A stretch of 64,000 nt of DNA from Fidelibacterota bacterium (GTDB taxonomy: Bacteria > Fidelibacterota > UBA2242 > JAOZSR01): positions 4,037 through 68,036 of the forward strand of contig JAOZSR010000006.1 in NCBI GenBank assembly GCA_029939575.1. Direction: 5' to 3'. The position numbers were made by a program, and so were the translations under genes. Shown one piece after another: positions 13,435 to 51,404 of the stretch. The notes beneath the pieces are model-generated. The model was not told the DNA's origin and did no database searches. It saw nothing but the letters and a program-made list of their open reading frames with translations. The first letter of the stretch is position 1, and each line of letters opens with the position of its first letter.

Positions 13435-15129
13435 ATGAAATTTCGATTTATATTATTAATAATTATTATAGTATTAGGTGGTACTCTTAGTTGTGAATTT
13501 GAAAAGCCAACATCTTTACAATTACCTGCAAGATGGAATTCACGATTAATTATTCCTCTGTTTGATCAAACTTATGAATTAGCAGATCTGATTTCGGATT
13601 CATCAGATGCTGAACAGAATCCATTATTTGCTGATTCCACAGGTAATATTCATTTTACTTTACAGGATTCACATCAGGCAACTCTTAATTTCAGCACCTC
13701 TGAATGGAATTTACCAGCACACAGTTTGTCTGCTGATACAAACTTTGCTAATATTACTGTTGATACAAGTGGGAATGTCAGCCCAATTCAATTTATAATA
13801 GCTGAAAAAACAAATTTTTTAAAACCACAACTCATTTCCGGTAAAATTGATATGTCACCAGCAAATCGGATAAACTTCCAGGTAGAATTAAGTGACACTC
13901 TAAGTAATCCTATCCAATTAACTATTACTTGTGAAAATTTTAAAGACAGAATTAGTGACACTTTAGAAATAGTGGAAATTTTGTTACCTGTAGGAAGTGA
14001 TTCGACTAATTTTAATTTGAGTGTCAGAGCTGATTCTCTTGTTAATGATGGAATAACTTTATTGGATTCACTTACATTTTCGATACTTTTGAATATTAAT
14101 GATTCCCTGGCAACTCCCGTTGAAGAATTAACCCAGGAGTTATCAATATCAATAGAAGTTAGTCCACTCACTCTCACTTCTTTTTTCGGAACAAGTTATT
14201 TGTCTGAGAAAATATCCGCCCGTAAATTTGAAAAAATTCCTCTTCTTGAAAATGGTGTAGATTTCGATTCCACAGAGATTATTATGGTCTTTAATAATTC
14301 TTCTCACCCTGATATTAAAAACCAGATAATCAGTATTGTTGGAAGGAAAGATGGATTCACCGACGTCCGGAAAGATACTACAGTAAGTTTGCTTATTGAT
14401 ACATTAAAAATGGATATTTCTAAAATTCTATCCCGTTTGCCAGATAGTTTGACAGTATTTTCCATTCCGATTTTAGAGCAAAAAGAATATATCTCCGGGG
14501 GAATAAACAGTATAGGGATTGATGCAAAATATGAAATTAGTGCCCCATTATCCTTTATGTTTTTTGATGAAATAAATATAATATCCGGTAATCCCAATGA
14601 GATTTTTATCAAAGATTCTTTAACCAGATCAAATTTATGCAAATCTCAAAATGGAGTTGCTTTTGATATGGAAGTAGAAAACAGTATGCGATTACCCGGA
14701 TATATTTATCTTATTGCCGGTAATTTCCCGTTGGTAAAATTTGATTCAGCATATATTTCAAATCGGGTTGATTTTTACTGGAATCCCACAATGGATTCTT
14801 TGTTTCATGTTAGTGATGAAACAACTCTTGTCAAATTTGATACGCTTGCGGAAATCGAATTACCTAAGGGTGAATGGGAGGATGTTCAGTTAATAAATCC
14901 GGGATATTCTCAACAAATGTTTTATTCTGATTCCAGTGTTGTTTCGCTATTATTAGATACAATGTATATCATGCCTGCTTTTAAATTATCCAATCCGGAC
15001 TCCATTCCGTTTTCCATAAATACGAATGAATTTTTTAGAATTAAATCCTATTTGAATGTACTCTTTGATCCAAAGGCCTTAACACCGGAATCTCCGGATA
15101 CTTCGGATACAACTTTAATTACAGGATAA
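13435..15129 (+). CDS. large surface lipoprotein, paralog A1 of the duplicated module
   Basis: Lipoprotein signal peptide (…VLGGTLSC). No known domain recognised. Its C-terminal half is similar to that of the protein at 16574..18847. Confidence 0.5.
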   Translation: MKFRFILLIIIIVLGGTLSCEFEKPTSLQLPARWNSRLIIPLFDQTYELADLISDSSDAEQNPLFADSTGNIHFTLQDSHQATLNFSTSEWNLPAHSLSADTNFANITVDTSGNVSPIQFIIAEKTNFLKPQLISGKIDMSPANRINFQVELSDTLSNPIQLTITCENFKDRISDTLEIVEILLPVGSDSTNFNLSVRADSLVNDGITLLDSLTFSILLNINDSLATPVEELTQELSISIEVSPLTLTSFFGTSYLSEKISARKFEKIPLLENGVDFDSTEIIMVFNNSSHPDIKNQIISIVGRKDGFTDVRKDTTVSLLIDTLKMDISKILSRLPDSLTVFSIPILEQKEYISGGINSIGIDAKYEISAPLSFMFFDEINIISGNPNEIFIKDSLTRSNLCKSQNGVAFDMEVENSMRLPGYIYLIAGNFPLVKFDSAYISNRVDFYWNPTMDSLFHVSDETTLVKFDTLAEIELPKGEWEDVQLINPGYSQQMFYSDSSVVSLLLDTMYIMPAFKLSNPDSIPFSINTNEFFRIKSYLNVLFDPKALTPESPDTSDTTLITG

Positions 15130-15134
15130 ATGTA

Positions 15135-16550
15135 TTGAGATCAATTATAAAAAATTTAAGAAATTATTTAAAAGCCTTTTTAATATTTGGTTTTTTCACA
15201 ATTTCTTATCTGTTTTCTCAATCTATCTATTATCCCAGAGCAAAGGGGCTTGGAGGGGCATATTCTACCATTGCAAAAGGCTATAAATGTGCGGCTTATA
15301 ACCCGGCTGGTTTAGCTTTCCCCGGCGAATATAGGAATTATTATGAGATTGGCGGTTGGTCAAAATTCGCTACCAATAATTTTTATTCACTGGCAATTAA
15401 TGGAAAATATGGTGGTAAGGATTTAACAGCGAATAATGGTGAATTACAATCGGAATTTATTGATGATTTGCCTTTAAAAGGCTGGCAAATAAACTTTGGA
15501 CAAAATTTCCCCTTACCATTATTGAATTTTTCAATTGGAAACAAAGCCTTTACAACAAACCTGCTCTATATTGGTGATTATTATGTTGATCGGCCTACTC
15601 TTGATTTGGTTTTTGGAAATTTCCAAAAAGGGAAAAAATACGACATCAATTTGCGTCTTGAATCAATGATGGCCGCCGAATATGGATTTTCCATGGGAAT
15701 TCCATATAACAATCTCGCTCTGGGATTTACTTTAAAATATATCCAGGGGTTGGGGTATTATGGGGTTGACCCAAGCCGGAGTGGTGGGTATATCATAGCA
15801 GATACAACAAATTTTGTGCTCGACGGTAGCGGGGATTTATATTTTCGTACTTCAAACCTTGGACGAGGATTTAGTGCCGATTTTGGATTCATGACAAAGG
15901 ATGTTTTTGGTACAGATATTTCTATAGCTATTAAAAATATTGGTGCGAAAATAGAATGGAATAAACAAAATCTTACACCTGGAAAAATGGGTGAAAGAGC
16001 TTTGGAATTTATGGGAAATCAGTTTAAAACCTGGAATACAGATGTTCAGTTACCTATGAGTGGTGAAATATTTAAATACTCATTTCATATGGATAATGTA
16101 AATGATGCTGAACAAAATGGCTTTTTTCAGGGAGATAGCAGTTATAAAGATTATTTTACAAGCAGTTCTGAAATTATCGACAGCAGTATTGCATTTACTA
16201 CAAAATTGCCAATAATTATTCAAATAGGATTTGCCCGAAATTTTAGTGATGATTTGTTAATAGTAATGGATTTTACAACTTCCTTTGAGGATAAACTAAA
16301 CTATTGGAAAGGATGGCGATCAGCCCTTGGAGCAGAATATTCCTATTTTCCTAAATTTCCATTAAGAATGGGCATGGCAGTTGGAGGACTTTCCGATTGG
16401 GAAATTGACCTGGGGAGTGGATTTCAATTTGGACCGGTTCAATTGGATTGGGCGGTTGGATTTTATGACGGAATATGGCTACATACATTAAAGGGTTATA
16501 GTTTTTCAATTGGTGCCAGCTTTTCATCAGGTAAGTTTAAAAATAAATAA
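15135..16550 (+). CDS. FadL/OMPP1-like outer-membrane beta-barrel, paralog B1
   Basis: Signal peptide. The KGLGGAYSTIAKGYKCAAYNPAGLAF motif resembles the FadL hatch motif GLGRAYSG...NPA. Clear paralog of the protein at 18844..20178. Confidence 0.5.
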   Translation: MRSIIKNLRNYLKAFLIFGFFTISYLFSQSIYYPRAKGLGGAYSTIAKGYKCAAYNPAGLAFPGEYRNYYEIGGWSKFATNNFYSLAINGKYGGKDLTANNGELQSEFIDDLPLKGWQINFGQNFPLPLLNFSIGNKAFTTNLLYIGDYYVDRPTLDLVFGNFQKGKKYDINLRLESMMAAEYGFSMGIPYNNLALGFTLKYIQGLGYYGVDPSRSGGYIIADTTNFVLDGSGDLYFRTSNLGRGFSADFGFMTKDVFGTDISIAIKNIGAKIEWNKQNLTPGKMGERALEFMGNQFKTWNTDVQLPMSGEIFKYSFHMDNVNDAEQNGFFQGDSSYKDYFTSSSEIIDSSIAFTTKLPIIIQIGFARNFSDDLLIVMDFTTSFEDKLNYWKGWRSALGAEYSYFPKFPLRMGMAVGGLSDWEIDLGSGFQFGPVQLDWAVGFYDGIWLHTLKGYSFSIGASFSSGKFKNK

Positions 16551-16573
16551 TTAGAAATTGATAAAAAAAATTT

Positions 16574-18847
16574 ATGAAGAATTTAGGACAAAGGTTATAT
16601 AAATGGATATTTCCATATATTTTGATTATTTCTGTTTTTCTTATTGGCAATTGTACAATTGATCCCATTAAACCCCCAACTTTACCAACATTTTACCAGA
16701 CGATAAACATTCCATTGGCCAATACCAATTTGCCATTGGCAAATTTACAGGATTCGCTTAATCACATTTTTGGTGATTCTTTGGCGGATTCACTCTGGTT
16801 TTTCTTTGAGGGTAGTCTTGATACAACAACTTTAACTAAGGATATTTTTGTTGTTCCAACGGCAATGGATATTGCATTTTCCCAGGAGTTTTCCGAAATA
16901 AGCGGCTCGGATATTTCTTTTGACACTACATTTAGTAAAATCATGAAATTGTCAGATCATATCCATGTGCCGGGAGTTTCTTTGCCCTTTGGTTTTGATG
17001 TTACCCTGGATTCTCTACAAAGAGAGCCTTTGATCAATGAAAATCATAAGATCAAAATTTTTGACAAATACAGTGTGCCATATTTTAAAAGAGTAGACTA
17101 CCTGACAATAGGCTCCGGTACTTTTAGCACGGAAATTACAAATGAACTACTTGTGGATATAGATTCAGTAAATATTGAATTATATAATATTGATGGAGAA
17201 TCAATTTCTAAATTATTTTTTGATAAGATACCGGCAGGAGAAAGCAGGTCAAAAGGTGAGGAAGGAAACCTGGCTGGAAAAAAAATGAGTGATTCGGTAG
17301 CCATTCAAATTAGTGCGATTTTTGCCGGAACAGATGGAGAGCCTTTATTAATTCCAGCCGAAACAGATCCTTTTGTAGATGTTGCTGTCAGGTTTGCTGT
17401 AGATAGTGTAGAAAGTTTTACCGGTATTCCCGAGCCTATAGAACTTTCCCAGTCAATACCAATACCAAGTTCAAATAATACAATTATAAGAGGAATTTAT
17501 TCCGATGTTCTTAGCGATTCACCGGATACAAACCAGATAACATTTCAGGTTCAGAATGATATGCAGGTAAATATTGATTTAGATATATCATTTTTGAATT
17601 TTTACGGTTCAAGCGGTATGTTGAATATTCATAACACATATTTTGCAGGTACTAGCGGTAGTGATATTTTACGCCTGGACAATGATACTTTAAGAAATTC
17701 TGATGCCAGTACTATTGTTGATTCAATAATTGTTCAGACTTTTGTAAACCTGGTTCCTGATGTTGGAGATACAGTGACTACAATACCCCTTTCTTCTCTC
17801 GATCAGAGTTTGGATATTAATATTAATGTGGCAATAATGCAATTTTCAGAAATTGTGGGATTTTTTAATGAATCTTTTGCAATTCCGCCGATAACAATTG
17901 AAGACATTCCCACTGGTTTTAGTGGCATTGATTTTGGAAATGTGTTCCTTAATTTGAAATTAAATAGTGAAATCCAGGCAAGTACTGATCTTAATCTTGA
18001 GATCGGTGGTTATCGCACTGGTTATGAGCCCGAAATTATTGAAATTATCCAAACAATTAATAAAGCCAGCGATACGAATCCGGTTGCAGAATCATCAGTA
18101 TCAATAGATATCGCTCCTGTATTCAACCTTATGCCGGATTCAATTATGGTAGATGGTGATGCATCGATACCTGCAAATGATACATCAAAATTACAAGTTG
18201 GAAAATCCTTTTGGGGGAATTATGAAATTACTGTACCTTTTAAATTAAAACTGGATCCACTTACTTTTATTCCTGTAAGTTCTACCACCTTTAATCCAAT
18301 CAGCAGCCAAATTGCTGAAAAACTTCGCTCCGGATTTATTGAAGCAAAAGTTATTAGTAAAGTAGAAAATAATTTTCCACTGGCCTGTATAATCGAGATT
18401 TTAATTTCAGATTTTGATTATTTTCCTATGGATAGCAGTACAGCTGATTCCGGGTATAATTGGATTGGAGATTCATTATTTGCAGATACTGATACCGGTC
18501 TGATACATATAAAAATTGACACTCTGGTTAGTATTGAATTGCCAAAACCCAATGAATTTAATCAGGATGGAAGTGTGAAAATTCCGTCAATATTGAATCA
18601 GCATAGCAATTTGGATTCTTTAACCTTTGAATCAATTTTAGAAGACAAAGTGCATTATATCAGGCCGAGAGTTTATTTAATTGGTACAGAAGATTATGTG
18701 ACAGTTAAACTCAGCGATGAAATAAAAATTCTTACTTTAATAAGTGTCACCATGGAAGCCGGAAAGTTTATTGGCCTTGACAATGACGAGTCTTCCGATA
18801 CTCTTGAAATTGATAATTTATCCAGAATAACCACAAATGGACATTGA
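16574..18847 (+). CDS. large surface lipoprotein, paralog A2
   Basis: Lipobox (…FLIGNC). Shares C-terminal blocks with A1 (NNFPL…, DTLxxIELPKxxE…). Confidence 0.5.
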   Translation: MKNLGQRLYKWIFPYILIISVFLIGNCTIDPIKPPTLPTFYQTINIPLANTNLPLANLQDSLNHIFGDSLADSLWFFFEGSLDTTTLTKDIFVVPTAMDIAFSQEFSEISGSDISFDTTFSKIMKLSDHIHVPGVSLPFGFDVTLDSLQREPLINENHKIKIFDKYSVPYFKRVDYLTIGSGTFSTEITNELLVDIDSVNIELYNIDGESISKLFFDKIPAGESRSKGEEGNLAGKKMSDSVAIQISAIFAGTDGEPLLIPAETDPFVDVAVRFAVDSVESFTGIPEPIELSQSIPIPSSNNTIIRGIYSDVLSDSPDTNQITFQVQNDMQVNIDLDISFLNFYGSSGMLNIHNTYFAGTSGSDILRLDNDTLRNSDASTIVDSIIVQTFVNLVPDVGDTVTTIPLSSLDQSLDININVAIMQFSEIVGFFNESFAIPPITIEDIPTGFSGIDFGNVFLNLKLNSEIQASTDLNLEIGGYRTGYEPEIIEIIQTINKASDTNPVAESSVSIDIAPVFNLMPDSIMVDGDASIPANDTSKLQVGKSFWGNYEITVPFKLKLDPLTFIPVSSTTFNPISSQIAEKLRSGFIEAKVISKVENNFPLACIIEILISDFDYFPMDSSTADSGYNWIGDSLFADTDTGLIHIKIDTLVSIELPKPNEFNQDGSVKIPSILNQHSNLDSLTFESILEDKVHYIRPRVYLIGTEDYVTVKLSDEIKILTLISVTMEAGKFIGLDNDESSDTLEIDNLSRITTNGH

Positions 18848-20178
18848 TCTTGATTAAATTTTTCCAATTTGTAATATTAATGACAGTTATATCTGTTGGA
18901 ATAAATGCGCAGACTCGTCGTGATCCCCGTGGAATGGCCTTGGCCGGGGCTTATGGATTGATGTCGCGTGGATATTTTTGTATAGATTATAATCCGGCAA
19001 ATCTGGCTATCCATGATCGTTATAAAAGTTATCGCTCTTTGGGCGGTTTGAATTTTGGATTTTCCAATAATTTTTTATCTTTATCTGAATATCAGAAATA
19101 TAACGGGAAAAATTTTGAAGCCGATAATGGGAAATTAAAAAACGAGTTTTTAACCAATTTGCCTAAAAATGGATGGCGGATTTTTTCAGATTTTCACTTT
19201 TCGCTTCCTCTGATTAATTATTCTTCAGTTAATAAAGCAATAACTTCAGATATAATTGTGATTGGAGATTTGGGATTGCCCAGAGGATTGATTTATTTTC
19301 TTTTTGATGGAAATCCATTAGATCGGGAATTGGATTTAGATTTTTCAGAAGAAACCCTGGCTATTGCACAGTGGGCATATTCTTTTGCGATTCCGGTTAA
19401 AAACTTTAATGTGGGTTTATCTCTGAAATATCTAATGGGAGGAGCATTTTTTGGTCTTGATCCGGATTCATCTTATGGCTCAATAACAACCAGTTTTGAA
19501 AGTGGGATAAATGGGAATGGCCATTATTTATTTGAGCAGAAAATTGGTGGACATGGTTTTGGAATTGATATCGGAGTTAATACTGAAAAAATTAATGGAT
19601 TCCGATTTGGCGTTTCAATAACCAACTTATTTGCAAATATAAATTTTGGCAAAGAAACGGTTATCACCAGAATGATTGATGCAGAAAAGATTCTTCCGTG
19701 GGATGGTAAGTTTTACCAGGTGGATTTTGAAATTGATAGCGCTAGTTTTGAAAAGTTTTTTGCCGGTGCCGGTTATGATGAGATCTTTAAAAGTGAGAAT
19801 ACAACAATAGAAAATCATAATAATATGAGTATCCGCTATCCATCTTTGGTACGATTTAGTGTTTCGAAAGATATTCAGGAAGAATCAGTATTAGCAATAG
19901 ATTTTGTGGCAGGCTTTGAAGATCGCTTATTTTCTTTTGGATCATGGAAATTCTGTGCCGGAGTCGAGACAACTCATTTTCCTCATACGCCATTACGGAT
20001 TGGAGTTGCATTTGGAGGAAAGGATCATCGATCTTTAAATTTCGGAAGCGGCTATCATCGTGGTTTTTTTCATTTTGATTGGGCTTTGGGATTCACTCAT
20101 TCTATATTTATCAAAAGTTCCAAAGGGTTGGAGTTTTCTGTAAATTTATTTACAACAAGATTGTGGAAAATAAAATAG
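18844..20178 (+). CDS. FadL/OMPP1-like outer-membrane beta-barrel, paralog B2
   Basis: Signal peptide. RGMALAGAYGLMSRGYFCIDYNPANLA motif. Collinear similarity to B1 (…NNGELQSEF/…DNGKLKNEF; LPLKGWQINF/LPKNGWRIFS). Confidence 0.5.
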   Translation: MILIKFFQFVILMTVISVGINAQTRRDPRGMALAGAYGLMSRGYFCIDYNPANLAIHDRYKSYRSLGGLNFGFSNNFLSLSEYQKYNGKNFEADNGKLKNEFLTNLPKNGWRIFSDFHFSLPLINYSSVNKAITSDIIVIGDLGLPRGLIYFLFDGNPLDRELDLDFSEETLAIAQWAYSFAIPVKNFNVGLSLKYLMGGAFFGLDPDSSYGSITTSFESGINGNGHYLFEQKIGGHGFGIDIGVNTEKINGFRFGVSITNLFANINFGKETVITRMIDAEKILPWDGKFYQVDFEIDSASFEKFFAGAGYDEIFKSENTTIENHNNMSIRYPSLVRFSVSKDIQEESVLAIDFVAGFEDRLFSFGSWKFCAGVETTHFPHTPLRIGVAFGGKDHRSLNFGSGYHRGFFHFDWALGFTHSIFIKSSKGLEFSVNLFTTRLWKIK

Positions 20179-21246: not shown

Positions 21247-21597
21247 ATGAAAAATAGCAAAAATGATATTTCTTTCGATAAATGGGATATTGTTCTCGTC
21301 ACTTTTCCTATGCCCGGCCAGATGAAAAAAAGACCGGCACTTATTATTTCCCCGGCTTCCTATAATCAAAATAATGACATTGTAATTGTAAATATTACAA
21401 GTAATCTTTCTGTTAATAAATTGTATGGAGATTATATGATTTGGGAATGGCAAAAAGCAAAATTACCTAAGCCTTCAATGATTAGAATGAATTTTGCTAC
21501 TGTTAATAGACGAAGGTTGGAACCTTTTGGAAAATTGAACGAAAAAGATGTTGAGGAATTTGGGAAGAACCTTAAACATTTTTTTAATTTAGATTAA
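21247..21597 (+). CDS. PemK/MazF-like type II toxin (copy 1)
   Basis: DKWDIVLVTFP…KKRPALIISP…VIVNITSN… matches the Kid/PemK/MazF fold pattern (GDIv.v.fp...krPalVls....N...vivvpiTs). Confidence 0.6.
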   Translation: MKNSKNDISFDKWDIVLVTFPMPGQMKKRPALIISPASYNQNNDIVIVNITSNLSVNKLYGDYMIWEWQKAKLPKPSMIRMNFATVNRRRLEPFGKLNEKDVEEFGKNLKHFFNLD

Positions 21598-21615
21598 AAA
21601 ATATTGGAGGATGGA

Positions 21616-21858
21616 ATGGGAGTAATGAGTATAAGACTTGATGACCAGAAGAAAAAATCTTTGAAAGTTATTGCATCAATAGAAGGTAAAACCATCGGAG
21701 GGTTAGTCGGTGAATTAATTGATGGATATATTGAAAAGAATAAAATTAAAATCAATAATATTGTCAAAAGTGATCATTTAGAGGATATAATCAAAATTTC
21801 AGAAGCATCATTTTTAGAATGGGATAATGAAGAAGATGAAATCTATAACGAATTATAA
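21616..21858 (+). CDS. ribbon-helix-helix (CopG/MazE-like) antitoxin
   Basis: MSIRLDDQKKKSLKVIASIEGKTIGGLVGELIDGYI forms a beta-strand plus two helices in the RHH pattern, followed by an acidic C-terminal tail (EWDNEEDEIYNEL). GGAGG lies 6 nt upstream; the track ORF begins at 21604. Its end overlaps the start of the second toxin. Confidence 0.55.
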   Translation: MGVMSIRLDDQKKKSLKVIASIEGKTIGGLVGELIDGYIEKNKIKINNIVKSDHLEDIIKISEASFLEWDNEEDEIYNEL

Positions 21859-22156
21859 AAAATGGGACATTGTTCTTGTAAATTTTCCATTTACAAAAAA
21901 TAATAGTCAAAGCAAAAGACCTGCTTTGATCATTTCACCTCAGGAATATAACCAGGCTGGGCAGGTAGTAATTTTATTTATTACCAGTAATATTAAAAAT
22001 GGCGGAGGAATTTCCATTAAGGAATGGAAAGAAGCCGGGTTGGCTAAACCCGCGATTATAAAGATGAAATTTGCTACAATTAATTTAGCAATAATACTTA
22101 AAAAATTAGGCAGACTTACCGATAATGATATTAATGAAATACAGCGAATACTGTAG
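21827..22156 (+). CDS. PemK/MazF-like type II toxin (copy 2)
   Basis: KKWDIVLVNFPF…SKRPALIISP…VVILFITSN… is a paralog of copy 1. Confidence 0.6.
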   Translation: MKKMKSITNYKKWDIVLVNFPFTKNNSQSKRPALIISPQEYNQAGQVVILFITSNIKNGGGISIKEWKEAGLAKPAIIKMKFATINLAIILKKLGRLTDNDINEIQRIL

Positions 22157-22201
22157 ATTAAAATATTTTATTATTTAGTTTGGAAGTAAAGGTGATGGAA
22201 C

Positions 22202-25200
22202 ATGAAGGCATATAACATTAAAAAAAACATAGTGTTATTTTTAATTTTATTTTTAATATCATTTGCAAACGGGCAATATGGAAAAAATAAAGTTTGCTAT
22301 GACGAATTTGACTGGAATTATATTCAAACAGAGCATCTGGATATATTTTTTTATGAAGGTGGTGAAGAGTTAGCAAAGTTTGCAGCACCAATTGCGGAAA
22401 GACAATTTAAACGGATTCAGAATGTTTTAAAATGGGAAGTAAATAAGCGAACAGCCTTATTGATTTACAATTCTCATAATGATTTTCAGCAGACTAATGT
22501 TACTTTGAGTTATATGACAGAGGGAATAGGTGGGTTTACAGAACTTTTTAAAAATAGAGCGGTAGTTGCTTTTGAGGGAGATTATCATGGCTTTTGGCAT
22601 GTAATAAAACATGAATTGGTACATGTTGTTGTAAATGATATGGTTTATGGTGGTAATATTCAAAGTGTTATTTCAGGGCGAGTGCAATTAAACATACCTT
22701 TATGGATGAATGAAGGTTTGGCTGAATATTTGTCATGGAATTGGGATACACATGCCGACCTTATGCTTCGTGATATAGCCATGAGCAATAATATTCCTGA
22801 TATCAAATATTTGGATTATTATATGGCATATAAAGGTGGTCAATCTGTTTACCAGTTTATTTCGCAGAAATATGGTGAAGAAAAAATTGGAGAAATATGG
22901 CGCACTATAAAAAGTAAAAAAAATGTTGATAAAGGTTTTGAAGCATGTATTGGTATGGATACTGAGGAATTATCAGAAGAATGGCATAAATGGCTAAGAC
23001 GTGAATATTGGCCGGAAGTTGCTGATAGGGATGAACTGGAAAGTATTGCCATTCGTATTACCGACCATAAAAAATTAAAAAATCATTTTAATACTGCTCC
23101 GGCTATTTCTCCAAACGGAGAAAAAATTGCATTTATTTCCGATAGGAATGGATATGCAGATATTTATCTTGCTTCAGCCCGAGATGGTGAAATTTTAAAA
23201 AGAGTTGTTCGTGGTCAAAAATCTCCTGATTTGGAAGAGATAAAATGGCTAAATCCAAGATTAAGTTGGTCTCCGGATGGGAAAGAACTTGTATTAGCGA
23301 CAAAAAGTGGAAATACAGATGCACTCATAATGGTTAATGTGGAAACAGGAGATATAAAGAAAAAAACATTTGATAATTTAGAAGAAATTTTTTCTGCAGC
23401 CTGGTCACCAGAGGGAGATAAAATAGCATTTATCGGATTGAAACAATATTATACAGATGTTTATTGTTATCATATTAAAGAAGATCGATTGGAACAATTT
23501 ACTGATGATATTTTTTCGGATTTTGAGCCTTCATGGTCACCTGACGGGTCAAAAATAATTTTTTCTTCTCAAAGAGGATGTGATGGTGAAATTAAAAAAT
23601 TTAAATTATCAAAAGATATTTCTAGGATTAACTATCATCAAAAGGATTTGTTTATTTTAGATTCAGAGTCAAAAGAAATCCATAGGGTAACAAATAGTCC
23701 TTACGAAGAAGATAGCCCGATCTGGATGAAACAAAAAAACGAAATATTATTTTGCTCTGATGAAAGCGGGATCACAAATTTTTATACATTAAACTTAGAA
23801 ACTAATAAACTTACAGCATTGTCAAATGTCCTTACTGGCGCATTTCAACCATCAATGAACTATGATGATACAAGGCTGGTTTTTGCCGGGTACTCAGATC
23901 AGGGATGGGATATTTATTCAATCAGTAATCCGATGGGTAGAAGCAGTGATTCTTTGATTATTGCCCCTACGGGATTTGTTTCCAAGCGGCCAAAAGTATG
24001 GGAACAGTGGGCAGAAAAAGGAGAATTAGAAATCAAGAAAGATGAAAAATTTTCTGTTACACGGAAAATTGAAGAGGAAAAATCCTATTCAAATTATATT
24101 TTTGCACCTGGATATGATGAATGGAAAGAGTCCAATGAAAGTCCCTATGATTCGGAAAAAGATTTAGTTGAAAAATTGGATTCTGTTAATTATCAAACAA
24201 AAGAGGGCGAATTTGTTGTAAATGAATATAAAACCAAGTTGTCTCTTGATTTGGTCGATAATCGGGCCGGATATAGTACTTTTTGGGGTTTTCAGGGAAC
24301 GACTGTTTTTTCTTTTAGTGATGTTTTAGGTAATCATCGTATTTTGTTTGGAACTGAAATGTATCTTGATTTGGAAAATAGTGACTATTATCTCAGTTAT
24401 CAATATTTAACAAATAAAACTAATATTTATTTTTCAGCTTTTCACTCTGCTAATTTTTATTCTTCTGGATATTATTCCATGTGGCGGTTAAGAAATTATG
24501 GAGCAAGTACATCATTTTCGCGACCTTTATCCAAATTTACAAGGCTGGAATATGGTTTAACTCTGTACAATGTTGAGCAAAATTTAATTGATATTTTAAC
24601 TAGTCAAACTCTTCAAGAGACCAAAATTCACACAATTTTGCCACAGGCTTCCTGGGTTTTTGATAACACTCTTTGGGCATATTTTTATCCTATTGATGGC
24701 TGGCGAGCCAGAGCTGATCTTACTGGTAGTCCAAGGTATAATAAAAACAGTCTGGAATTTGTATCATTAAATCTAGATTTTCGTCGCTATTTTAAACTAA
24801 ACAGGGAATATTCCTTTGCTTTACGTTTCAGTGGTGGAATAAGTGAAGGTAAGAATGCTCAGCGTTTTTTCCTGGGTGGAGAAACAAATTGGATAAATCA
24901 AAAATTTAAACATTATCATAATTTTAGTAATGCAGAAGATATTTATTTTTCTCGGTTTATAACCCCTTTGCGAGGAGCCAGGTATTATGAAAGAGAAGGA
25001 ACAAGGTATTTTCTGACTAACTTTGAATTCCGTTATCCCTTTATAAAATATCTCCAGTTGGGTTGGCCAATTCCACTTATAACCGGTGGAATTCAAGGAG
25101 TTACTTTCCTTGATATTGGTTCAGCCTGGCATGATAGTAATTTTCATCCTTTTACCAGAACAGCCGGTAATGATTTAATTATGGATGACCTGGTTGGAGG

Positions 25201-25324
25201 ATATGGATTCGGAACCAGACTATTTTTTGGATATTTTTTATTAAAAATAGATATTGCCTGGAGATTTGATCTGCATACAATACATGATCCGCAATATTAT
25301 TTTTCACTGGGTATGGATTTCTAG
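22202..25324 (+). CDS. three-module outer-membrane protein: N-terminal HExxH domain, TolB-like PD40 beta-propeller, C-terminal Omp85/BamA-type beta-barrel
   Basis: Signal peptide. HELVHVV motif in the N-terminal domain. PD40 repeats (ISPNGEKIAFISDRNG…, WSPDGKELVLAT…, AWSPEGDKIAFIG, SWSPDGSKIIFSS). C-terminal surface-antigen barrel (…GGIQGVTFLDIGSAW…GYGFGTRLFFGYFLLKIDIAWRFD). Confidence 0.6.
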   Translation: MKAYNIKKNIVLFLILFLISFANGQYGKNKVCYDEFDWNYIQTEHLDIFFYEGGEELAKFAAPIAERQFKRIQNVLKWEVNKRTALLIYNSHNDFQQTNVTLSYMTEGIGGFTELFKNRAVVAFEGDYHGFWHVIKHELVHVVVNDMVYGGNIQSVISGRVQLNIPLWMNEGLAEYLSWNWDTHADLMLRDIAMSNNIPDIKYLDYYMAYKGGQSVYQFISQKYGEEKIGEIWRTIKSKKNVDKGFEACIGMDTEELSEEWHKWLRREYWPEVADRDELESIAIRITDHKKLKNHFNTAPAISPNGEKIAFISDRNGYADIYLASARDGEILKRVVRGQKSPDLEEIKWLNPRLSWSPDGKELVLATKSGNTDALIMVNVETGDIKKKTFDNLEEIFSAAWSPEGDKIAFIGLKQYYTDVYCYHIKEDRLEQFTDDIFSDFEPSWSPDGSKIIFSSQRGCDGEIKKFKLSKDISRINYHQKDLFILDSESKEIHRVTNSPYEEDSPIWMKQKNEILFCSDESGITNFYTLNLETNKLTALSNVLTGAFQPSMNYDDTRLVFAGYSDQGWDIYSISNPMGRSSDSLIIAPTGFVSKRPKVWEQWAEKGELEIKKDEKFSVTRKIEEEKSYSNYIFAPGYDEWKESNESPYDSEKDLVEKLDSVNYQTKEGEFVVNEYKTKLSLDLVDNRAGYSTFWGFQGTTVFSFSDVLGNHRILFGTEMYLDLENSDYYLSYQYLTNKTNIYFSAFHSANFYSSGYYSMWRLRNYGASTSFSRPLSKFTRLEYGLTLYNVEQNLIDILTSQTLQETKIHTILPQASWVFDNTLWAYFYPIDGWRARADLTGSPRYNKNSLEFVSLNLDFRRYFKLNREYSFALRFSGGISEGKNAQRFFLGGETNWINQKFKHYHNFSNAEDIYFSRFITPLRGARYYEREGTRYFLTNFEFRYPFIKYLQLGWPIPLITGGIQGVTFLDIGSAWHDSNFHPFTRTAGNDLIMDDLVGGYGFGTRLFFGYFLLKIDIAWRFDLHTIHDPQYYFSLGMDF

Positions 25325-25370
25325 AAGATATGTTTTCTGATAATACATGAATGTAAATGATAAAAAAAAT

Positions 25371-25407
25371 GTTCCACATATGAGGGAACATTTTTTTTAA
25401 GTTTGTT
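25371..25407. terminator. bidirectional rho-independent terminator (A7-ATGTTCC-N9-GGAACAT-T7) between convergent genes
   Basis: Seen in the sequence: a 7-bp stem flanked by an A-run and a T-run. Confidence 0.6.
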
Positions 25408-25449: not shown

Positions 25450-26046
25450 TTATTCCTGAATCAGAGTTTCGACTTCCTGGGCTTTTGAGCGTCTTCCGGC
25501 ACGGATATAGCGTCCGATTGATTCTTCGAAGTATTCATTAGCCTTTTCTATGTTTCCTTTAGTTCTTTGTTCAATACCGGCTTCTTTCAAATACATTGCT
25601 GATTCTTCCCACCGACCTTCTTTTTTAAGTGTTTCAGCCAAATTTTCCAGGTTTGGTTGTTCTTTTGAAACTTCCATTTTTTCACCAGACAGGGCATTTT
25701 TCAGGGTTGGAATGAGTTTTTCATAAATTGCTGATTTGGTATGGATATCATAGGCTCCGGCTGAAAGATAATCATCTCTGACCTGGATAGATAATTCTCC
25801 AGTCAAGCCTATTACGGGAACATTTGGTTTTAATTGTTTCATTAGTTTTAAAACTTTTAATCCATCCATACCTGGTAAATTGTGATCTAAAATAACGGCA
25901 TTATAATCATTTGTTTTGAATAATTCCAGAGCTTTTTCACCATCTACTGCTTCATCTGTTGAGAATTCTTCTGAACCCAGATATTCAATCAAAGCATCTC
26001 TTAACAGTGCTTTATCATCGACTAATAATATTTTCTGTTTTTCCAT
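25450..26046 (-). CDS. stand-alone response-regulator receiver (CheY-like) with helical C-terminal extension
   Basis: REC motifs LLVDD…ILDHNLPGMDG…GLTG…HTK. Confidence 0.75.
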   Translation of the reverse strand: MEKQKILLVDDKALLRDALIEYLGSEEFSTDEAVDGEKALELFKTNDYNAVILDHNLPGMDGLKVLKLMKQLKPNVPVIGLTGELSIQVRDDYLSAGAYDIHTKSAIYEKLIPTLKNALSGEKMEVSKEQPNLENLAETLKKEGRWEESAMYLKEAGIEQRTKGNIEKANEYFEESIGRYIRAGRRSKAQEVETLIQE

Positions 26047-26060
26047 AATTGTCCTTTCGC

Positions 26061-27266
26061 TTATAATTTAAATTTTATTTTAAAAGTTGTCCCTTTACCA
26101 ACCTTGCTTTCTGCTTTTATAGTACCCTCATGGTTTTCAATAACTTTTTTACAGATCATCAGACCCAGGCCGGTTCCCTGCTTTCCCTGCCATTTTGTAT
26201 AATCCGGCCGCCAAATTTTTTCAAGATTTTCAGGAGAAATACCACAACCTGAATCGCTAATTTCTAAATTGGCATATCCATTTTCATAATTTGTTACCGT
26301 AGATAGTGTTCCTTTTCCATCCATTGATTTATAGGCATTTTCAATAATATTGATAAAAACCCTGAAAAGATCTTCTTTGCTGGCAGACATTTTCAAAGAT
26401 GTTTCTGTATATTTTTCATTTATTATTACTTCTGGATTTTCCTGGACTCTTGAGTCCATATAAAGATGAATTGCGGTTTTAAGTAAATTATTTAAGTCTA
26501 CTTCTTCTTTATGTGTTTTTTCAAGGTCTATAGCAGATCCGAGTTCTTTTAGTTTTTTCCCTAATTCTTTAAAAAAATCCATTAGTGTTATTATACTTTT
26601 ACCTTTTTCAATTGTATCAGTAGCAAGATTCGAGATAAGTTTTTTGTTTTCTTCCAGTTCTTGTTTAATACTTTCAGATATACTTGCTTCTGGAATAATT
26701 GAATAAAGATTATCAGTTTCATTTTTTATTTTTTCGACTTTTTTATTTAGCATCTGGAGTCGAAGCATCAATGAAGCATAATAACTGCCAGACATGTCAT
26801 GACCAATACTCTTTACAATTAACTGGCTTTCCTGGATGGCTTGTTTTCTTTCTTCATTGAGTTTTTCATTTCTCAATCTCTCATTTTGCCATTCGAATCC
26901 TTTTTCAATTCTTTCGAAAAACAGATCAGTATATTCTACAACTACATGTTTTTGAATAAAATCTTTCGCACCAAGACGCAATGAATCTACAGCATTTTCT
27001 ATGGTAATTTCACCGGTTAATACTATAACATAATTTTTCCCCATCAGCTTTTGGGTTTCCATTTGTCGTAAAAAATCGAGGCCCGACATGTTCGGCATTT
27101 TCAAATCAAGAAGGATGACCCGGAAGTTTTTATCCTTAAGAGTATTCAGCCCCTCTGCTGGATCAGTAAAGTATTCTGAAGTCCAACCATTTTCATCGAG
27201 CATTTCCTGAATACTCATACAAAAAGGTTCACTGTCGTCAACTAATAAAAGGTCTTTGTAAAACAT
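26061..27266 (-). CDS. receiver-modulated histidine kinase (N-terminal REC plus HisKA/HATPase_c)
   Basis: REC (LLVDD…LLDLKMP…VLTGE…AKDF), H-box SIGHDMSGS, N-box NIIENAYKS, G-boxes ISDSGCGI and GTGLGLMICKKVI. Confidence 0.8.
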   Translation of the reverse strand: MFYKDLLLVDDSEPFCMSIQEMLDENGWTSEYFTDPAEGLNTLKDKNFRVILLDLKMPNMSGLDFLRQMETQKLMGKNYVIVLTGEITIENAVDSLRLGAKDFIQKHVVVEYTDLFFERIEKGFEWQNERLRNEKLNEERKQAIQESQLIVKSIGHDMSGSYYASLMLRLQMLNKKVEKIKNETDNLYSIIPEASISESIKQELEENKKLISNLATDTIEKGKSIITLMDFFKELGKKLKELGSAIDLEKTHKEEVDLNNLLKTAIHLYMDSRVQENPEVIINEKYTETSLKMSASKEDLFRVFINIIENAYKSMDGKGTLSTVTNYENGYANLEISDSGCGISPENLEKIWRPDYTKWQGKQGTGLGLMICKKVIENHEGTIKAESKVGKGTTFKIKFKL

Positions 27267-29072
27267 TTAATATCTTTCTAAAGGTAATTCCAGCACAACA
27301 CGAGAAAACGAATCGCTTTCATTAAATTTGATATCGCCCTGATAACTGGATGTGATTATTTCATTTATTACTTCTAAGGAAAATTGATTTGGACTATAGT
27401 CTTTACTATCCCCCAACATATTTTCCACAGATTTACTTGATATTTTTACTCCATCTTTATTATTTATACCAATGATATTGGTTACAAGCAATTTATCTGG
27501 AGTAATTCTGACATTAATTTGAATTGTGGAACCATAATGTTCGAATCTGGAAATTATCAAAGAAATTAAGGATATTAAAACTTCTATAATTTCATTTGGA
27601 TCTACTGAAATTTCCGGTAATTGATTTTCATTTTCTTTGTCCCTCTTGATATTTATTTTTTTTGCAGTAAAATCGCTGGTTAAAAATAGCATACTTTCAT
27701 CTAATAATTCCTTCCAGGTTCTTTTTACATGAATAAATCCAGCCCGGGTTGAGAATTCCTGTAATACACGCACTTCACCTGCTACTTGCTGGAGGTTTGT
27801 TTTAATCATTAAAAGACGCTCAATTAAATTTTCTTTTGGAATATCTTTATTTTTTTTACTTTTTTGAATAATGTTGTTTATCCCTAACTGTGCCTCTGTA
27901 AGAGGATTTACTACATCATTAGGTATTCTCATAGCAAGGGTACCAAGTGCTGTTAGCCGTTGTCTTTTCATGGTTTTAACAGCACTGAGTTTCATTGTGT
28001 CAACATAATCTACATTTTCTATTGCTACTGAAATCATATCAGATAATATTCTAAGGTAATGCTCGTCATTTTTGGTAAAATATTTTCCGGTATCAGTATT
28101 TGAAATTTTGTTGTATAGTTTGATTGCACCTACTGTAGTTTTTTTAATTTTTATCGGCATTCCCATAAATGTCAAACGGTCGCCAAATTTTAAATGGCTT
28201 TTAATAGCATTTCTGTATTTACCTTTATATTCCGGTAAAAGCAGAACGTTTTTTGAACGAATAGTTCTATTTTCTTTAACAATAGTTCCGGTAAGCCCTT
28301 CACCGACAGTATGGCTGGCGACATTAATTAATTCTTTCGGTATGCCGTAACCACCAATCAAAATCAAACTGTTTTTGTCCTCTTTTTTCCTGAGATAAAT
28401 TTCACAGGTTTCTGATGAAATGGTTTTGGCGGTATTTTCAGCAACAAAATCTAATAAGTCTTTTATATCTGTGAAAGATAGAATCTGAGTTCCAACATTC
28501 ATTAAAAGTTCAAGATAGTTGGTTTTTCTTTTTTCTTTTTTTAATAGTTCGGCATTTTCAATCGCCATAGCAACCAAACGGGAAATTAGGAGGAATACAT
28601 CTAAATCTGATTTGTTAAAATTATGTAAATCAGAAGCGCTTCTCATTAATCCAATAAATTTTCCGTTTTGAGATTTCATAGGTACTGCCATAAAGGATTT
28701 TGCTTTATTTTGGTTAGACTCGCTGAATTTGCCCTTCCACTCAAGCTGAACATCCAGACTTTTGAGATCTTCATTTGTTTTTTTATCCAGATCACGAATT
28801 AATAGAGGTTCCTGATTATTAAATACCCATCCGGTTAATCCCTCATTTCTTTTGTAGGTGACTTCCCGTGATTTGTTTGAAGATAATCCACTGGTTCTGG
28901 CTAATTTGAGAATATCATCTCCTTCATCATAAAGAAATACAGAACAGCCTTTCCAGTTAAAAACTGAAGGAATGATTTCTACGCTTTTTTCTAGAATACT
29001 ATCAAGAGAGCGGGCGCTGAAAACAGATAGTACTTCCAGAAGTTGTTCATTATTTAATGTGCTTAGTTTCAC
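27267..29072 (-). CDS. two-GAF-domain sensor with a degenerate histidine-kinase-like C-terminus (putative pseudokinase)
   Basis: Two GAF-like blocks (…GLTGWVF…, …GEGLTGTIV…). The H-box position reads AMRIPNDVVNPLT, with His replaced by Asn. The C-terminal region has no N, G1 or G2 ATP-binding motifs. Confidence 0.5.
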   Translation of the reverse strand: MKLSTLNNEQLLEVLSVFSARSLDSILEKSVEIIPSVFNWKGCSVFLYDEGDDILKLARTSGLSSNKSREVTYKRNEGLTGWVFNNQEPLLIRDLDKKTNEDLKSLDVQLEWKGKFSESNQNKAKSFMAVPMKSQNGKFIGLMRSASDLHNFNKSDLDVFLLISRLVAMAIENAELLKKEKRKTNYLELLMNVGTQILSFTDIKDLLDFVAENTAKTISSETCEIYLRKKEDKNSLILIGGYGIPKELINVASHTVGEGLTGTIVKENRTIRSKNVLLLPEYKGKYRNAIKSHLKFGDRLTFMGMPIKIKKTTVGAIKLYNKISNTDTGKYFTKNDEHYLRILSDMISVAIENVDYVDTMKLSAVKTMKRQRLTALGTLAMRIPNDVVNPLTEAQLGINNIIQKSKKNKDIPKENLIERLLMIKTNLQQVAGEVRVLQEFSTRAGFIHVKRTWKELLDESMLFLTSDFTAKKINIKRDKENENQLPEISVDPNEIIEVLISLISLIISRFEHYGSTIQINVRITPDKLLVTNIIGINNKDGVKISSKSVENMLGDSKDYSPNQFSLEVINEIITSSYQGDIKFNESDSFSRVVLELPLERY

Positions 29073-46791: not shown

Positions 46792-47784
46792 ATGATATAT
46801 TTTGCTGATTGGGGATATCTGTTTTTTTTGTTGATTATACCAGTACTGGTTTTTTGGTATTTTAGGAAAGGTCAAAAAGCAGAATCCAGTTTTAAATATT
46901 CATCAATAAATAATTTGACCGAGTTAGTAGGAAATGGGCAAAAGTGGAAAATATATACCCTGCATAGTTTAAAATTATTAGCGATTATTTTATTTATTTT
47001 AGCATTGGGCAGACCACAAAAAGGAAATACTGTAAAAGAATTTACCAGTGAAGGAATTGATATTTTGTTGGTATTGGACATTTCCAGTTCGATGAAAGCT
47101 GTTGATTTTCAGCCAAACAGGCTTGAAGCAGCAAAAAATGTAGCAAGAAAGTTTATCGAAGGAAGACGTGACGATAGGATTGGCTTGGTGGTTTTTGGTG
47201 GAGAAAGCTTCCTGCAATGCCCCCTAACAATTGATTATGATGTTTTGAAAATGTTGTTGCAACAGGTGGAGATTATTGAGCAAAAATTTGATGGAACTGC
47301 CATAGGACTGGCCATTGCAAGTGGAATAAACAGGTTAAGAGAGAGTGCCGCGGAAAGTAAAGTTATGATTTTACTTTCAGATGGACGAAATAATGCCGGT
47401 GAATTAGATCCCCTGACTACCGCTGATATGGCAAAGGCATTTGGTATCAAAATTTATACGATTGGAGCCGGAAGACGAGGACGTGCACCATATCCCTATG
47501 TTGATCCATTTGGACAAAAAAAACATCAGCTCGTGGATGTTGAAATTGATGAACAGGTTTTACAAAGTATCGCCCAAAATACCGGTGGAAAATATTTTCG
47601 TGCAACAGATGAAAAAAGCCTTTTTTCTATTTATAAAGAAATAAGTGAAATGGAAAAAACTGAAATCAAAGTCAAGGAATTTACAAATTATACAGAACTT
47701 TATCATTATTTCTTACTTCCAGGTATCTTAATTTTATTAATTAGTACTTTGTTGGGTTTTACTTTATGGAGGAAGACTCCATAA
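46792..47784 (+). CDS. batA: aerotolerance-operon protein BatA (N-terminal TM plus vWA domain)
   Basis: Two N-terminal transmembrane helices, then a vWFA MIDAS motif DILLVLDISSSM. First gene of the batABCDE series. Confidence 0.8.
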   Translation: MIYFADWGYLFFLLIIPVLVFWYFRKGQKAESSFKYSSINNLTELVGNGQKWKIYTLHSLKLLAIILFILALGRPQKGNTVKEFTSEGIDILLVLDISSSMKAVDFQPNRLEAAKNVARKFIEGRRDDRIGLVVFGGESFLQCPLTIDYDVLKMLLQQVEIIEQKFDGTAIGLAIASGINRLRESAAESKVMILLSDGRNNAGELDPLTTADMAKAFGIKIYTIGAGRRGRAPYPYVDPFGQKKHQLVDVEIDEQVLQSIAQNTGGKYFRATDEKSLFSIYKEISEMEKTEIKVKEFTNYTELYHYFLLPGILILLISTLLGFTLWRKTP

Positions 47785-48806
47785 TGGTTAGATTTTCAAA
47801 TATAGAATTTTTTTGGTTTTTCGCCGGGTTCGTTTTAGTAGTGTTCTTCTTTATTTCTGCAAGTAGAAAAAGGAAAAAAGATATTTTAGCTTTTGGTGGA
47901 GCAAATCTTGCCGAAAAAATGTTAATCGGATATGTGCCACGTATTAGAAAATTAAAGGAAGTTCTGTTATTATCAGCATTATTTGTTTTACTTTTGGCTT
48001 TGACTGGTCCTCAGGTTGGAACAAAAATTACAGAAGTAAAGAGAAAAGGTATTGATATCATGATTGCAATTGATGTCTCTACGAGTATGAATGCCGAAGA
48101 TATTTCACCAAGCAGGTTAGGTAGAGCTAAATATGAGGCTAGCAAATTTATTGAAAGATTAAAAGGTGATCGGGTTGGTTTGGTAGCTTTTGCCGGAATT
48201 AGTTATCTCCATTGTCCTTTAACTTTAGATTACAGCGCTTCGAAATTATTCCTGGATGCTATTGATACCGGTATAATCGGAACCCAGGGAACTGCAATTG
48301 CCGACGCTATACTTTTATGTTTGAAATCATTTAAGAGTGATGTTAAAAAACACAAGGTTATAATTGTAATTTCTGATGGCGAAGACCATGAAGGTGATCT
48401 ATCAAAAGCGATAGATAAAGCAATAGAAGATGGTGTCATTATTTATTCAGTTGGTGTAGGTACTTTGTCGGGCTCACCAATACCTGTAATTAATAAAAAA
48501 ACCGGAGTAGTAGAGTTTAAAAGAGATCGCGGGAATCGTGTAGTAACTTCATCATTAGAAGAGGAATCACTTCAAAAAATTGCCGCAATGACCGGTGGTG
48601 AATATTATAGTATGGAAATGATTCCAGACGTATTTCCCAGAATTTATAAGTCAATAACCGGTTTGGAAGAAAAAGAATTTAGCACTCATGAATATAGTGA
48701 TTATAGAGAACAATTCCAGATTTTTCTTGTTATTGGATTAATATTATTACTCTTAGAAATATTATTACCTGAAAAAATATATAAAAAAAATGGTGAAAAT
48801 GGTTAA
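47784..48806 (+). CDS. batB: BatB (TM plus vWA domain)
   Basis: MIDAS motif DIMIAIDVSTSM. Start taken at the ATG overlapping the batA stop (TAATG), after GGAGGAAG; the track ORF begins at 47766. Confidence 0.8.
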   Translation: MVRFSNIEFFWFFAGFVLVVFFFISASRKRKKDILAFGGANLAEKMLIGYVPRIRKLKEVLLLSALFVLLLALTGPQVGTKITEVKRKGIDIMIAIDVSTSMNAEDISPSRLGRAKYEASKFIERLKGDRVGLVAFAGISYLHCPLTLDYSASKLFLDAIDTGIIGTQGTAIADAILLCLKSFKSDVKKHKVIIVISDGEDHEGDLSKAIDKAIEDGVIIYSVGVGTLSGSPIPVINKKTGVVEFKRDRGNRVVTSSLEEESLQKIAAMTGGEYYSMEMIPDVFPRIYKSITGLEEKEFSTHEYSDYREQFQIFLVIGLILLLLEILLPEKIYKKNGENG

Positions 48807-49557: not shown

Positions 49558-49558
49558 A

Positions 49559-51403: not shown

Positions 51404-51404
51404 T

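Follow-up and report, generated by a model that had tools for sequence, protein, structure and literature searches.

The 64,000-nucleotide stretch of Fidelibacterota DNA analyzed here (the window; contig JAOZSR010000006.1 of assembly GCA_029939575.1) encodes on its plus strand, at 22202..25324 including the stop codon, a 1040-amino-acid (aa) Omp85-family protein with an N-terminal peptidase and propeller. From its ATG start, the single open reading frame (ORF) runs through a Sec signal peptide, a predicted zinc-peptidase domain, a six-bladed TolB-like propeller built of PD40 repeats, a flexible tether, and a 16-strand Omp85 β-barrel. The original prediction had placed a signal peptide, an HExxH domain, a PD40 propeller, and an Omp85 barrel in one ORF, and all three of its domain calls are correct. 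It had also described the protein as chimeric, but the chimera is not a novel one: the protein belongs to a widespread and vertically conserved family that was catalogued in 2014 as ‘WD40-like’ Omp85 (Heinz and Lithgow, 2014, Front Microbiol 5:370; PMC4104836). The finding is thus real but not new, and the architecture has since been cited repeatedly as uncharacterized. As to function, we favor with moderate confidence a protein whose barrel anchors a periplasm-facing peptidase and whose propeller captures or filters unfolded polypeptide near the outer membrane.

Outer-membrane biogenesis centers on Omp85 proteins, and nearly all that is known of them comes from the POTRA-bearing BamA, TamA, and TpsB. 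Members of the present family combine an Omp85 barrel with an intact zinc peptidase and a TolB-type propeller, a union that is stable across the FCB (Fibrobacteres, Chlorobi, and Bacteroidetes) superphylum, in hundreds of species that include abundant ocean bacteria (Marinimicrobia/SAR406). The function of such a protein would reveal either that periplasmic enzymes can be mounted on Omp85 barrels, as is now argued for PlpD, or that a fused device for both assembly and quality control exists.

Export of the protein is indicated by a Sec signal peptide at residues 1–24 (22202..22273, plus strand), without a lipobox Cys and with a putative cleavage site at MKAYNIKKNIVLFLILFLISFANG/QYGKNKV. The predicted mature N-terminus is Q25, which is Gln in at least 90% of 90 homologs, and the N-termini of the homologs align. 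N-terminal Gln or pyroglutamate is reportedly a habit of signal-peptidase-I substrates in Bacteroidetes, with which Q25 would agree. In the homolog alignment, Q25 is directly followed by a conserved FG(K/Q)NKVQY segment, the two together covering residues 25–33 (22274–22300 in the window).

Zinc Peptidase Domain

Residues 26–285 (22277..23056, plus strand) form a predicted gluzincin (clan MA) zinc-peptidase domain. Pfam matched Peptidase_MA_2 (PF13485) on residues 80–266 at 50–54 bits against a cut-off of 32.4. The full-length AlphaFold2 model, which has a mean predicted local distance difference test (pLDDT) value of 83.9 and a predicted template modeling (pTM) score of 0.82, contains an α/β peptidase domain extending to about residue 285. 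This model and all conservation values given below are based on an alignment of 90 full-length homologs with 43–63% identity. A separate model of residues 26–285 has a pLDDT of 85.5. Foldseek searches with the same residues retrieved the peptidase domains of M9 collagenases (4ar9, 4ar1, 7zbv) as well as the M1 catalytic domains of IRAP, tricorn-interacting factor F3, PepN, ERAP1, and LTA4H. The M9 and M1 matches, among them 1z1w, 3qnf, and 4ar1, have TM-scores of 0.5–0.6, a Foldseek probability of 1.0, and E-values of about 1e-4, and assign a thermolysin-like catalytic fold to the predicted model. Single-sequence and profile searches of the domain against PDB sequences gave no significant peptidase match, and for this reason the domain is a remote gluzincin that, as judged from its sequence and predicted fold, lies outside any characterized peptidase family.

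The putative zinc-binding and catalytic motif HELVH (H137, E138, and H141; 22610..22624, plus strand) is kept in 90 of the 90 homologs, and L139 within it is also invariant. Both the alignment and hhalign point to E171 as the third zinc ligand, located in the helix W168-M-N-E171-G-L-A-E175 (22703..22726, plus strand), in which W168, E171, G172, and E175 are invariant. More distant relatives retain the same arrangement: among the best 150 matches to the barrel, the pattern HExxH...W..E[GA] occurs in the N-terminal part of 81 out of 82 full-length sequences (at least 930 aa). Moreover, the peptidase domain has the highest mean identity in the homolog alignment (59%), ahead of the barrel (52%), the propeller (48%), and the tether (24%). 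The zinc site predicted from these residues (H137/E138/H141/E171) is complete and invariant, and peptidase activity is predicted. The zinc-metalloprotease-type motif noted in the original prediction therefore lies in a fold recovered by both PF13485 and Foldseek, is conserved, and has its completing Glu in E171. The M48 or basic-secretory-protein-like fold that had been suggested for this domain was not recovered by Pfam or Foldseek, which rejects BepA-like and basic-secretory-protein-like folds in favor of an M1/M9-like gluzincin.

The zinc site was compared with that of the M1 peptidase LTA4H. The LTA4H segment used for this comparison is identical to LTA4H chains in the PDB except for the first residue. 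Alignment of the family profile with this segment by hhalign placed HELVH/HEISH and WMNEG/WLNEG in register, although at low probability and over the two zinc-binding helices only. The Glu of WLNEG is zinc ligand E318 of LTA4H. The spacing between HExxH and the Glu is 29 residues in this family compared to 18 in LTA4H, corresponding to an 11-residue insertion. The most conserved patch of the domain is G111-F-T-E114-L-F-K-N-R, in which G111-F-T-E114 may correspond to the M1 exopeptidase motif GxMEN, which it resembles in its sequence and its distance from HExxH; the patch lies outside the hhalign alignment. Membership in the M1 aminopeptidase family was rejected on the spacing (x29 instead of x18) and on the lack of a Peptidase_M1 or ERAP1_C match in Pfam. 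The protein shares the thermolysin-like gluzincin catalytic fold with M1 (LTA4H, PepN, and tricorn-interacting factor F3) and M9 peptidases, whereas it lacks both the N-terminal β domain and the C-terminal ERAP1_C domain of M1. Used on its own as a query, the peptidase domain retrieved mostly truncated metagenomic fragments that belong to this family, and no distinct stand-alone relatives.

Propeller and Tether

The peptidase domain is followed by a six-bladed TolB-like PD40 β-propeller at residues ~290–580 (23069..23941, plus strand). The PD40 repeats scored 68 bits against a Pfam cut-off of 20.9, six PD40-type blade motifs are present in the sequence, and the model has ~23 strands between residues 297 and 575. 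TolB is the best match to this region in both sequence and fold. A profile search of the propeller against PDB sequences matched solved TolB structures at E-values down to 2e-21, with S9 and tricorn peptidases also matched, and Foldseek with the whole model ranked TolB first (including 2w8b and 2ivz, the latter being a complex of TolB with a colicin E9 peptide), with S9/tricorn structures again among the matches. The TolB model TIGR02800 (NCBIfam) reached 130 bits, below its cut-off of 343, and covered propeller positions only.

A flexible tether at residues 583–672 (23948..24217, plus strand) connects the propeller to the barrel. It begins with a helix (residues 591–606) and continues as a disordered segment rich in E, S, D, and K, with pLDDT values below 50 at residues 605–612 and 619–661 and a length of 73–99 residues among homologs. 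No β-α-α-β-β POTRA unit is present between the propeller and the barrel in the model, and no POTRA family was matched in Pfam; the view that a propeller and a peptidase take the place of POTRA domains is thereby supported. Within the tether lies an aromatic motif, Y-S-N-Y-I-F-A-P-G-Y (residues 629–638; 24086..24115, plus strand), in which F634 is invariant and the flanking aromatic residues are conserved among the 90 close homologs, whereas the rest of the tether is unconserved and disordered. A strict regular expression for this motif matched only 9 out of 80 distant relatives, and the pattern does not generalize.

Omp85 Barrel

Residues 675–1040 (24224..25321, plus strand), ending in a C-terminal Phe, form a 16-strand Omp85 β-barrel. 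When residues 651–1040 were scanned alone, PF01103 (Omp85) was matched at 44.6 bits against a cut-off of 24. The match was not reported in the scan of the full-length protein, while many homologs carry a precomputed PF01103 match. The model contains 16 long strands from residue 680 to 1037, with pLDDT values mostly between 80 and 97, and Foldseek retrieved BamA barrels at E-values of 1e-9 to 1e-10, in agreement with the 16-strand Omp85 barrel expected beforehand. Neither single-sequence nor profile searches of PDB sequences yielded a significant match to the barrel.

Two motifs defined from BamA and FhaC are characteristic of Omp85 proteins, namely (V/I)RG(F/Y) in loop 6 and (F/G)xDxG in strand 13. 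Loop 6 of the present protein consists of 52 aa (residues 883–934; 24848..25003, plus strand) between strands 11 and 12 and contains P922-[VL]-R924-G925, in which P922, R924, and G925 are invariant and the R-G corresponds to that of Omp85; the next residue is A, S, or T and not aromatic. The strand-13 motif F-x-D-x-G is present as F969-L-D971-I-G973 (25106..25120, plus strand), with F in 88, D in 90, and G in 86 of the 90 homologs. In addition, an invariant Gly (G1037) occupies position −3, and the homologs end in an aromatic or hydrophobic residue. The best-conserved strands are those of the seam (1, 2, and 16; conservation 0.71–0.78). Segments assigned as periplasmic turns have a fixed length and conservation of 0.57–0.83, whereas loops L3, L4, L7, and L8 vary in sequence and length (0.30–0.47). 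Periplasmic turn T6 (residues 947–964; 25040–25093) is unusually long at 18 aa, keeps a length of 17–18 in homologs, contains the invariant P956, and is a possible docking surface.

The C-terminal domain is a true Omp85 barrel that belongs to neither BamA nor TamA. It shares with both the 16 strands, the R-G of loop 6, the F-x-D-x-G of strand 13, and the aromatic C-terminus, but the protein differs from them in lacking POTRA domains, in its short extracellular loops L3 and L4, and in bearing an enzyme. The assignments to BamA (TIGR03303; 34.5 bits against a cut-off of 297) and TamL (27.1 bits against 400) were both rejected, given these scores and the lack of POTRA domains. A type Vd autotransporter of the PlpD kind was also rejected, as neither a patatin nor a POTRA match was found.

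Family Membership and Distribution

The 1040-aa protein matches the ‘WD40-like’ POTRA-less subfamily by its architecture, its fold matches, and its Caldithrix homologs. Heinz and Lithgow (2014; PMC4104836) divided the Omp85/TpsB superfamily into ten subfamilies, already recognizing that some lack POTRA sequences, and described WD40-like members as carrying PD40 repeats in place of POTRA domains ahead of the barrel, with TolB as the closest structure. They likened this subfamily to a fusion of BamA and BamB. The same combination of an Omp85 barrel with PD40 repeats and no POTRA domain was found here, and the domain profiles in their Table S2 consist of PF01103 with a variable number of PF07676 repeats. 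The kinds of structures matched also agree, including a propeller nearest to TolB and an M1/M9-like peptidase domain. Their Phyre2 results (Table S3) list TolB (2w8b, 2ivz) for the propeller, BamA/TamA (4k3b, 4c00) for the barrel, and, as ‘best aminopeptidase hit’, 1z5h, 4kxd, 3qnf, 4ar1, and 4fgm, with M1 and M9 peptidases among them. The main text of that study covers the propeller only, and the peptidase appears solely in the supplement. Because tricorn protease is the best match listed there for at least one protein (D0MCT8), the proteases of the WD40-like subfamily may be of more than one type. The 2014 list of WD40-like proteins includes Caldithrix, and full-length homologs with 42–43% identity were found in Caldithrix metagenome-assembled genomes (MAGs). 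Subsequent work has summarized the subfamilies as having ‘divergent WD40 and peptidase domains’ (PMC11358297) and has called the enzyme-bearing Omp85 subfamilies highly conserved, poorly characterized, and ‘intriguing targets’ (PMC11116518).

Relatives were detected in at least 592 species genomes in a scan of one genome per species. The best 80 of these are full-length matches with 40–63% identity and, where taxa are named, belong mostly to Marinimicrobia/Fidelibacterota, Calditrichota, KSB1, Ignavibacteria, and Bacteroidota. When only the barrel was used as the query of an exhaustive search, the matches with E ≤ 1e-3 comprised 1548 clusters (50% identity) and those with E ≤ 1e-30 comprised 222. 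Among the best 150 barrel matches, all inspected sequences of 330–560 aa have their first residue within the propeller, tether, or barrel, except for P0374, which is an N-terminal fragment; since their starts fall inside domains, these sequences are truncated fragments and not a short form of the protein. Distant members with 29–35% barrel identity still contain Peptidase_MA_2 and PD40. This retention, together with the zinc motif in 81 of the 82 full-length relatives, indicates from sequence comparison that the three-part architecture is old and essentially obligate and not a recent chimera.

At least one genome encodes more than one copy. The Marinimicrobia MAG NP55 contains two full-length paralogs with 45 and 41% identity to the present protein (loci L019 on PBTS01000024 and L050 on PBTS01000029), and the 2014 accession list apparently has several entries per genome in some organisms, judging by shared accession prefixes.

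Topology and Possible Function

In BamA, loop 6 connects strands 11 and 12. As the 52-residue R-G loop occupies this very position in the present barrel, strand 1 is expected to start in the periplasm, and the N-terminal module would be periplasmic unless it is actively exported. The standard barrel topology is further supported by the conserved, fixed-length turns and the variable loops. With regard to substrate, the TolB propeller binds disordered colicin peptides, and other propellers gate the access of substrates to S9 and tricorn peptidases, which suggests that the propeller of the present protein probably acts as a capture device or filter that serves the zinc site with unfolded polypeptide. 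The S9 and tricorn enzymes likewise couple a propeller to a peptidase, although they are serine peptidases and are not membrane-anchored. A periplasmic location is also favored by PlpD, a patatin-like Omp85 protein of Pseudomonas aeruginosa and the only studied Omp85 protein with an N-terminal enzyme domain, which was long assumed to export its passenger until experiments located the enzyme domain exclusively in the periplasm (PMC11116518). PlpD resembles the present protein in joining an N-terminal hydrolase domain to an Omp85 barrel, but it has one POTRA domain, a lipase instead of a peptidase, and no propeller.

On this basis, the barrel would be inserted into the outer membrane after export, and the peptidase-propeller module, attached to a strand 1 that begins at the periplasmic face, would hang in the periplasm on its tether. 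The 73–99 residues of the tether would let the module sample the space beneath the outer membrane. The propeller would bind or filter extended, unfolded polypeptide, and the M1/M9-like zinc site would cleave what the propeller delivers. As the product of a stand-alone housekeeping gene, the protein may serve physiologically to turn over imported peptides or unfolded proteins of the envelope on the inner side of the outer membrane. The original prediction of a periplasmic or surface-anchored machine for peptide binding and processing, rather than a component of the β-barrel assembly machinery (BAM), agrees with what we infer to be the likeliest function.

The gene neighborhood in other genomes is consistent with such autonomy. 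In a sample of 81 loci, an EamA gene lies downstream in 44 loci and a TGT gene in 36, including annotated Marinimicrobia loci. Divergent upstream genes encode a metallophosphoesterase and a HEAT-repeat protein, RNase R is found upstream in Chitinophagaceae, and further lineage-specific neighbors include NUDIX and an amino-acid permease. In Calditrichota only, same-strand genes for components of a Mla-family ABC transporter, MlaE-like (8 loci) and MlaF-like ABC-ATPase (6 loci), are located directly downstream (e.g., L030, 8044–9644). Neither tolQRA nor pal was found near the gene at any locus examined, and the conserved neighbors in the 81 loci include no BAM or chaperone genes. The neighborhood was not taken as evidence of function, as it amounts to lineage-specific synteny with unrelated housekeeping genes. 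Since the neighbors differ between phyla, an autonomous protein encoded by a monocistronic, stand-alone housekeeping gene with no dedicated partner nearby is the probable interpretation.

Two points count against the favored function. A simple anchor does not need a 16-strand Omp85 barrel, and the conservation of seam strands 1, 2, and 16, of loop 6, and of the strand-13 motif hints that the barrel may do more than anchor. In addition, our literature searches found no functional study of, or experiment on, any member of the family.

The same conserved features would also fit an active Omp85 quality-control machine, in which the barrel engages nascent or stalled outer-membrane proteins (OMPs) at the seam between strands 1 and 16 as BamA does, the propeller holds these clients, and the peptidase degrades them, so that one polypeptide would be the counterpart of BamA, BamB, and BepA. 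We regard such a machine as possible but unlikely. The seam strands are the most conserved of the barrel, the R-G of loop 6, F-x-D-x-G, and the Gly at position −3 are invariant or nearly so, and the barrel is almost obligately linked to the zinc motif, but the conserved barrel motifs may serve the stability of the fold only. The BamA–BamB fusion has already been invoked by Heinz and Lithgow (PMC4104836), whereas the model lacks POTRA domains and the BamA score of 34.5 bits falls far short of 297. A zinc protease that acts at BAM is already known in BepA, and the functional logic of a zinc protease at the site of outer-membrane assembly is similar; however, BepA is an M48 peptidase and a soluble protein with tetratricopeptide (TPR) repeats, whereas the peptidase of the present protein is M1/M9-like. 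The MlaE-like and MlaF-like genes downstream in Calditrichota may also be read in favor of such a machine, while BAM and chaperone genes are not conserved nearby.

An autonomous machine of the FCB group for the surveillance and degradation of OMPs, in which the barrel is functionally coupled to the enzyme and clients are engaged at the seam, held by the propeller, and cut at the zinc site while the tether motif serves as a regulatory strand, is rather improbable. By analogy to the strand-swapping segment of PlpD, the tether motif at residues 629–638 could dock on the seam or on the active site.

Less probable still is a surface-displayed peptidase, in which the module leaves the periplasm by way of the barrel or alongside it in a type V-like manner and breaks down external proteins or peptides for nutrition. 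The tether is long and flexible and, with its helix at residues 591–606, could in principle span the barrel lumen. However, loop 6, which occupies the lumen in solved Omp85 structures, is retained with its conserved R-G. A folded module of 550 residues would also need to cross the membrane unfolded, without POTRA domains or a partner, and the conservation pattern of turns and loops fits the standard topology. Heinz and Lithgow (PMC4104836) did raise translocation for enzyme-bearing Omp85 proteins, following the original model of PlpD, but later work demonstrated a periplasmic location for the enzyme domain of PlpD (PMC11116518).

A component of the Tol-Pal system, i.e., a TolB ortholog fused to an anchor, is suggested by the best sequence and fold matches of the propeller and by the database name ‘biopolymer transporter Tol’, but it is highly implausible, as TIGR02800 scores 130 bits against 343 over the propeller blades only, the peptidase stands where TolB has its N-terminal TolA-binding domain, and tolQRA and pal are absent near every locus examined; orthology to TolB was rejected on the score and the missing domain. 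A catalytically dead scaffold, in which an HExxH pseudo-enzyme is used for binding only, has hardly any likelihood given three invariant zinc ligands, an invariant catalytic Glu, and a peptidase that is the most conserved domain of the protein.

The Gene and Its Surroundings in the Window

The gene has a G+C content of 33.3%, close to the 32.5% of the window, which indicates that the ORF is native in composition. An unbroken frame of 3.1 kb at 32.5% G+C excludes chance, and the ORF is therefore real; the opposite strand of 22202..25324 is rich in stop codons. A Shine-Dalgarno-like AGGTGA (22190..22195, plus strand) can be read from the sequence 6 nucleotides 5′ of the ATG. An identical protein (P0001) is already public; its gene lies on a metagenomic scaffold of 83 kb, where the neighbors are the same. 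No paralog of the 1040-aa protein was found elsewhere in the 64-kb window.

On the 3′ side, the minus strand carries convergent genes for a response regulator, a hybrid histidine kinase, and a GAF protein (25450–29072). The original prediction had rightly called these two-component genes convergent with the gene, but had placed them upstream, whereas they lie downstream. Between the convergent genes, a hairpin with the A8-stem-T8 arrangement of a bidirectional intrinsic terminator spans 25361..25399, with a folding free energy (ΔG) of −15.5 kcal/mol and a z-score of −4.7; none of 200 shuffled sequences was equally stable. The stability of this hairpin supports the bidirectional terminator proposed previously, although a simple terminator scan missed it.

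Upstream, the gene is adjoined by two ORFs for PemK/MazF-like toxins (21247–21597 and 21827–22156, plus strand), and an 84-aa ORF between them (21604–21858) has a faint match to the antitoxin-like DUF6290. Further upstream, four successive large ORFs of 564, 471, 757, and 444 aa (13435–20178, plus strand) have no Pfam family assigned, with only a sub-threshold match to DUF5723 in the last of them. Toward the other end of the window, a BatD-domain protein (49559–51403, plus strand) is encoded within a run of co-oriented ORFs (46792–52172) that is possibly a Bat-type operon, BatD being the sole member scanned. A 1038-aa Poly_export polysaccharide export protein (59762–62878, plus strand) contains an unusually long run of SLBB domains, with PF10531 matched on 6 stretches and PF22461 on 3, some of which may overlap.

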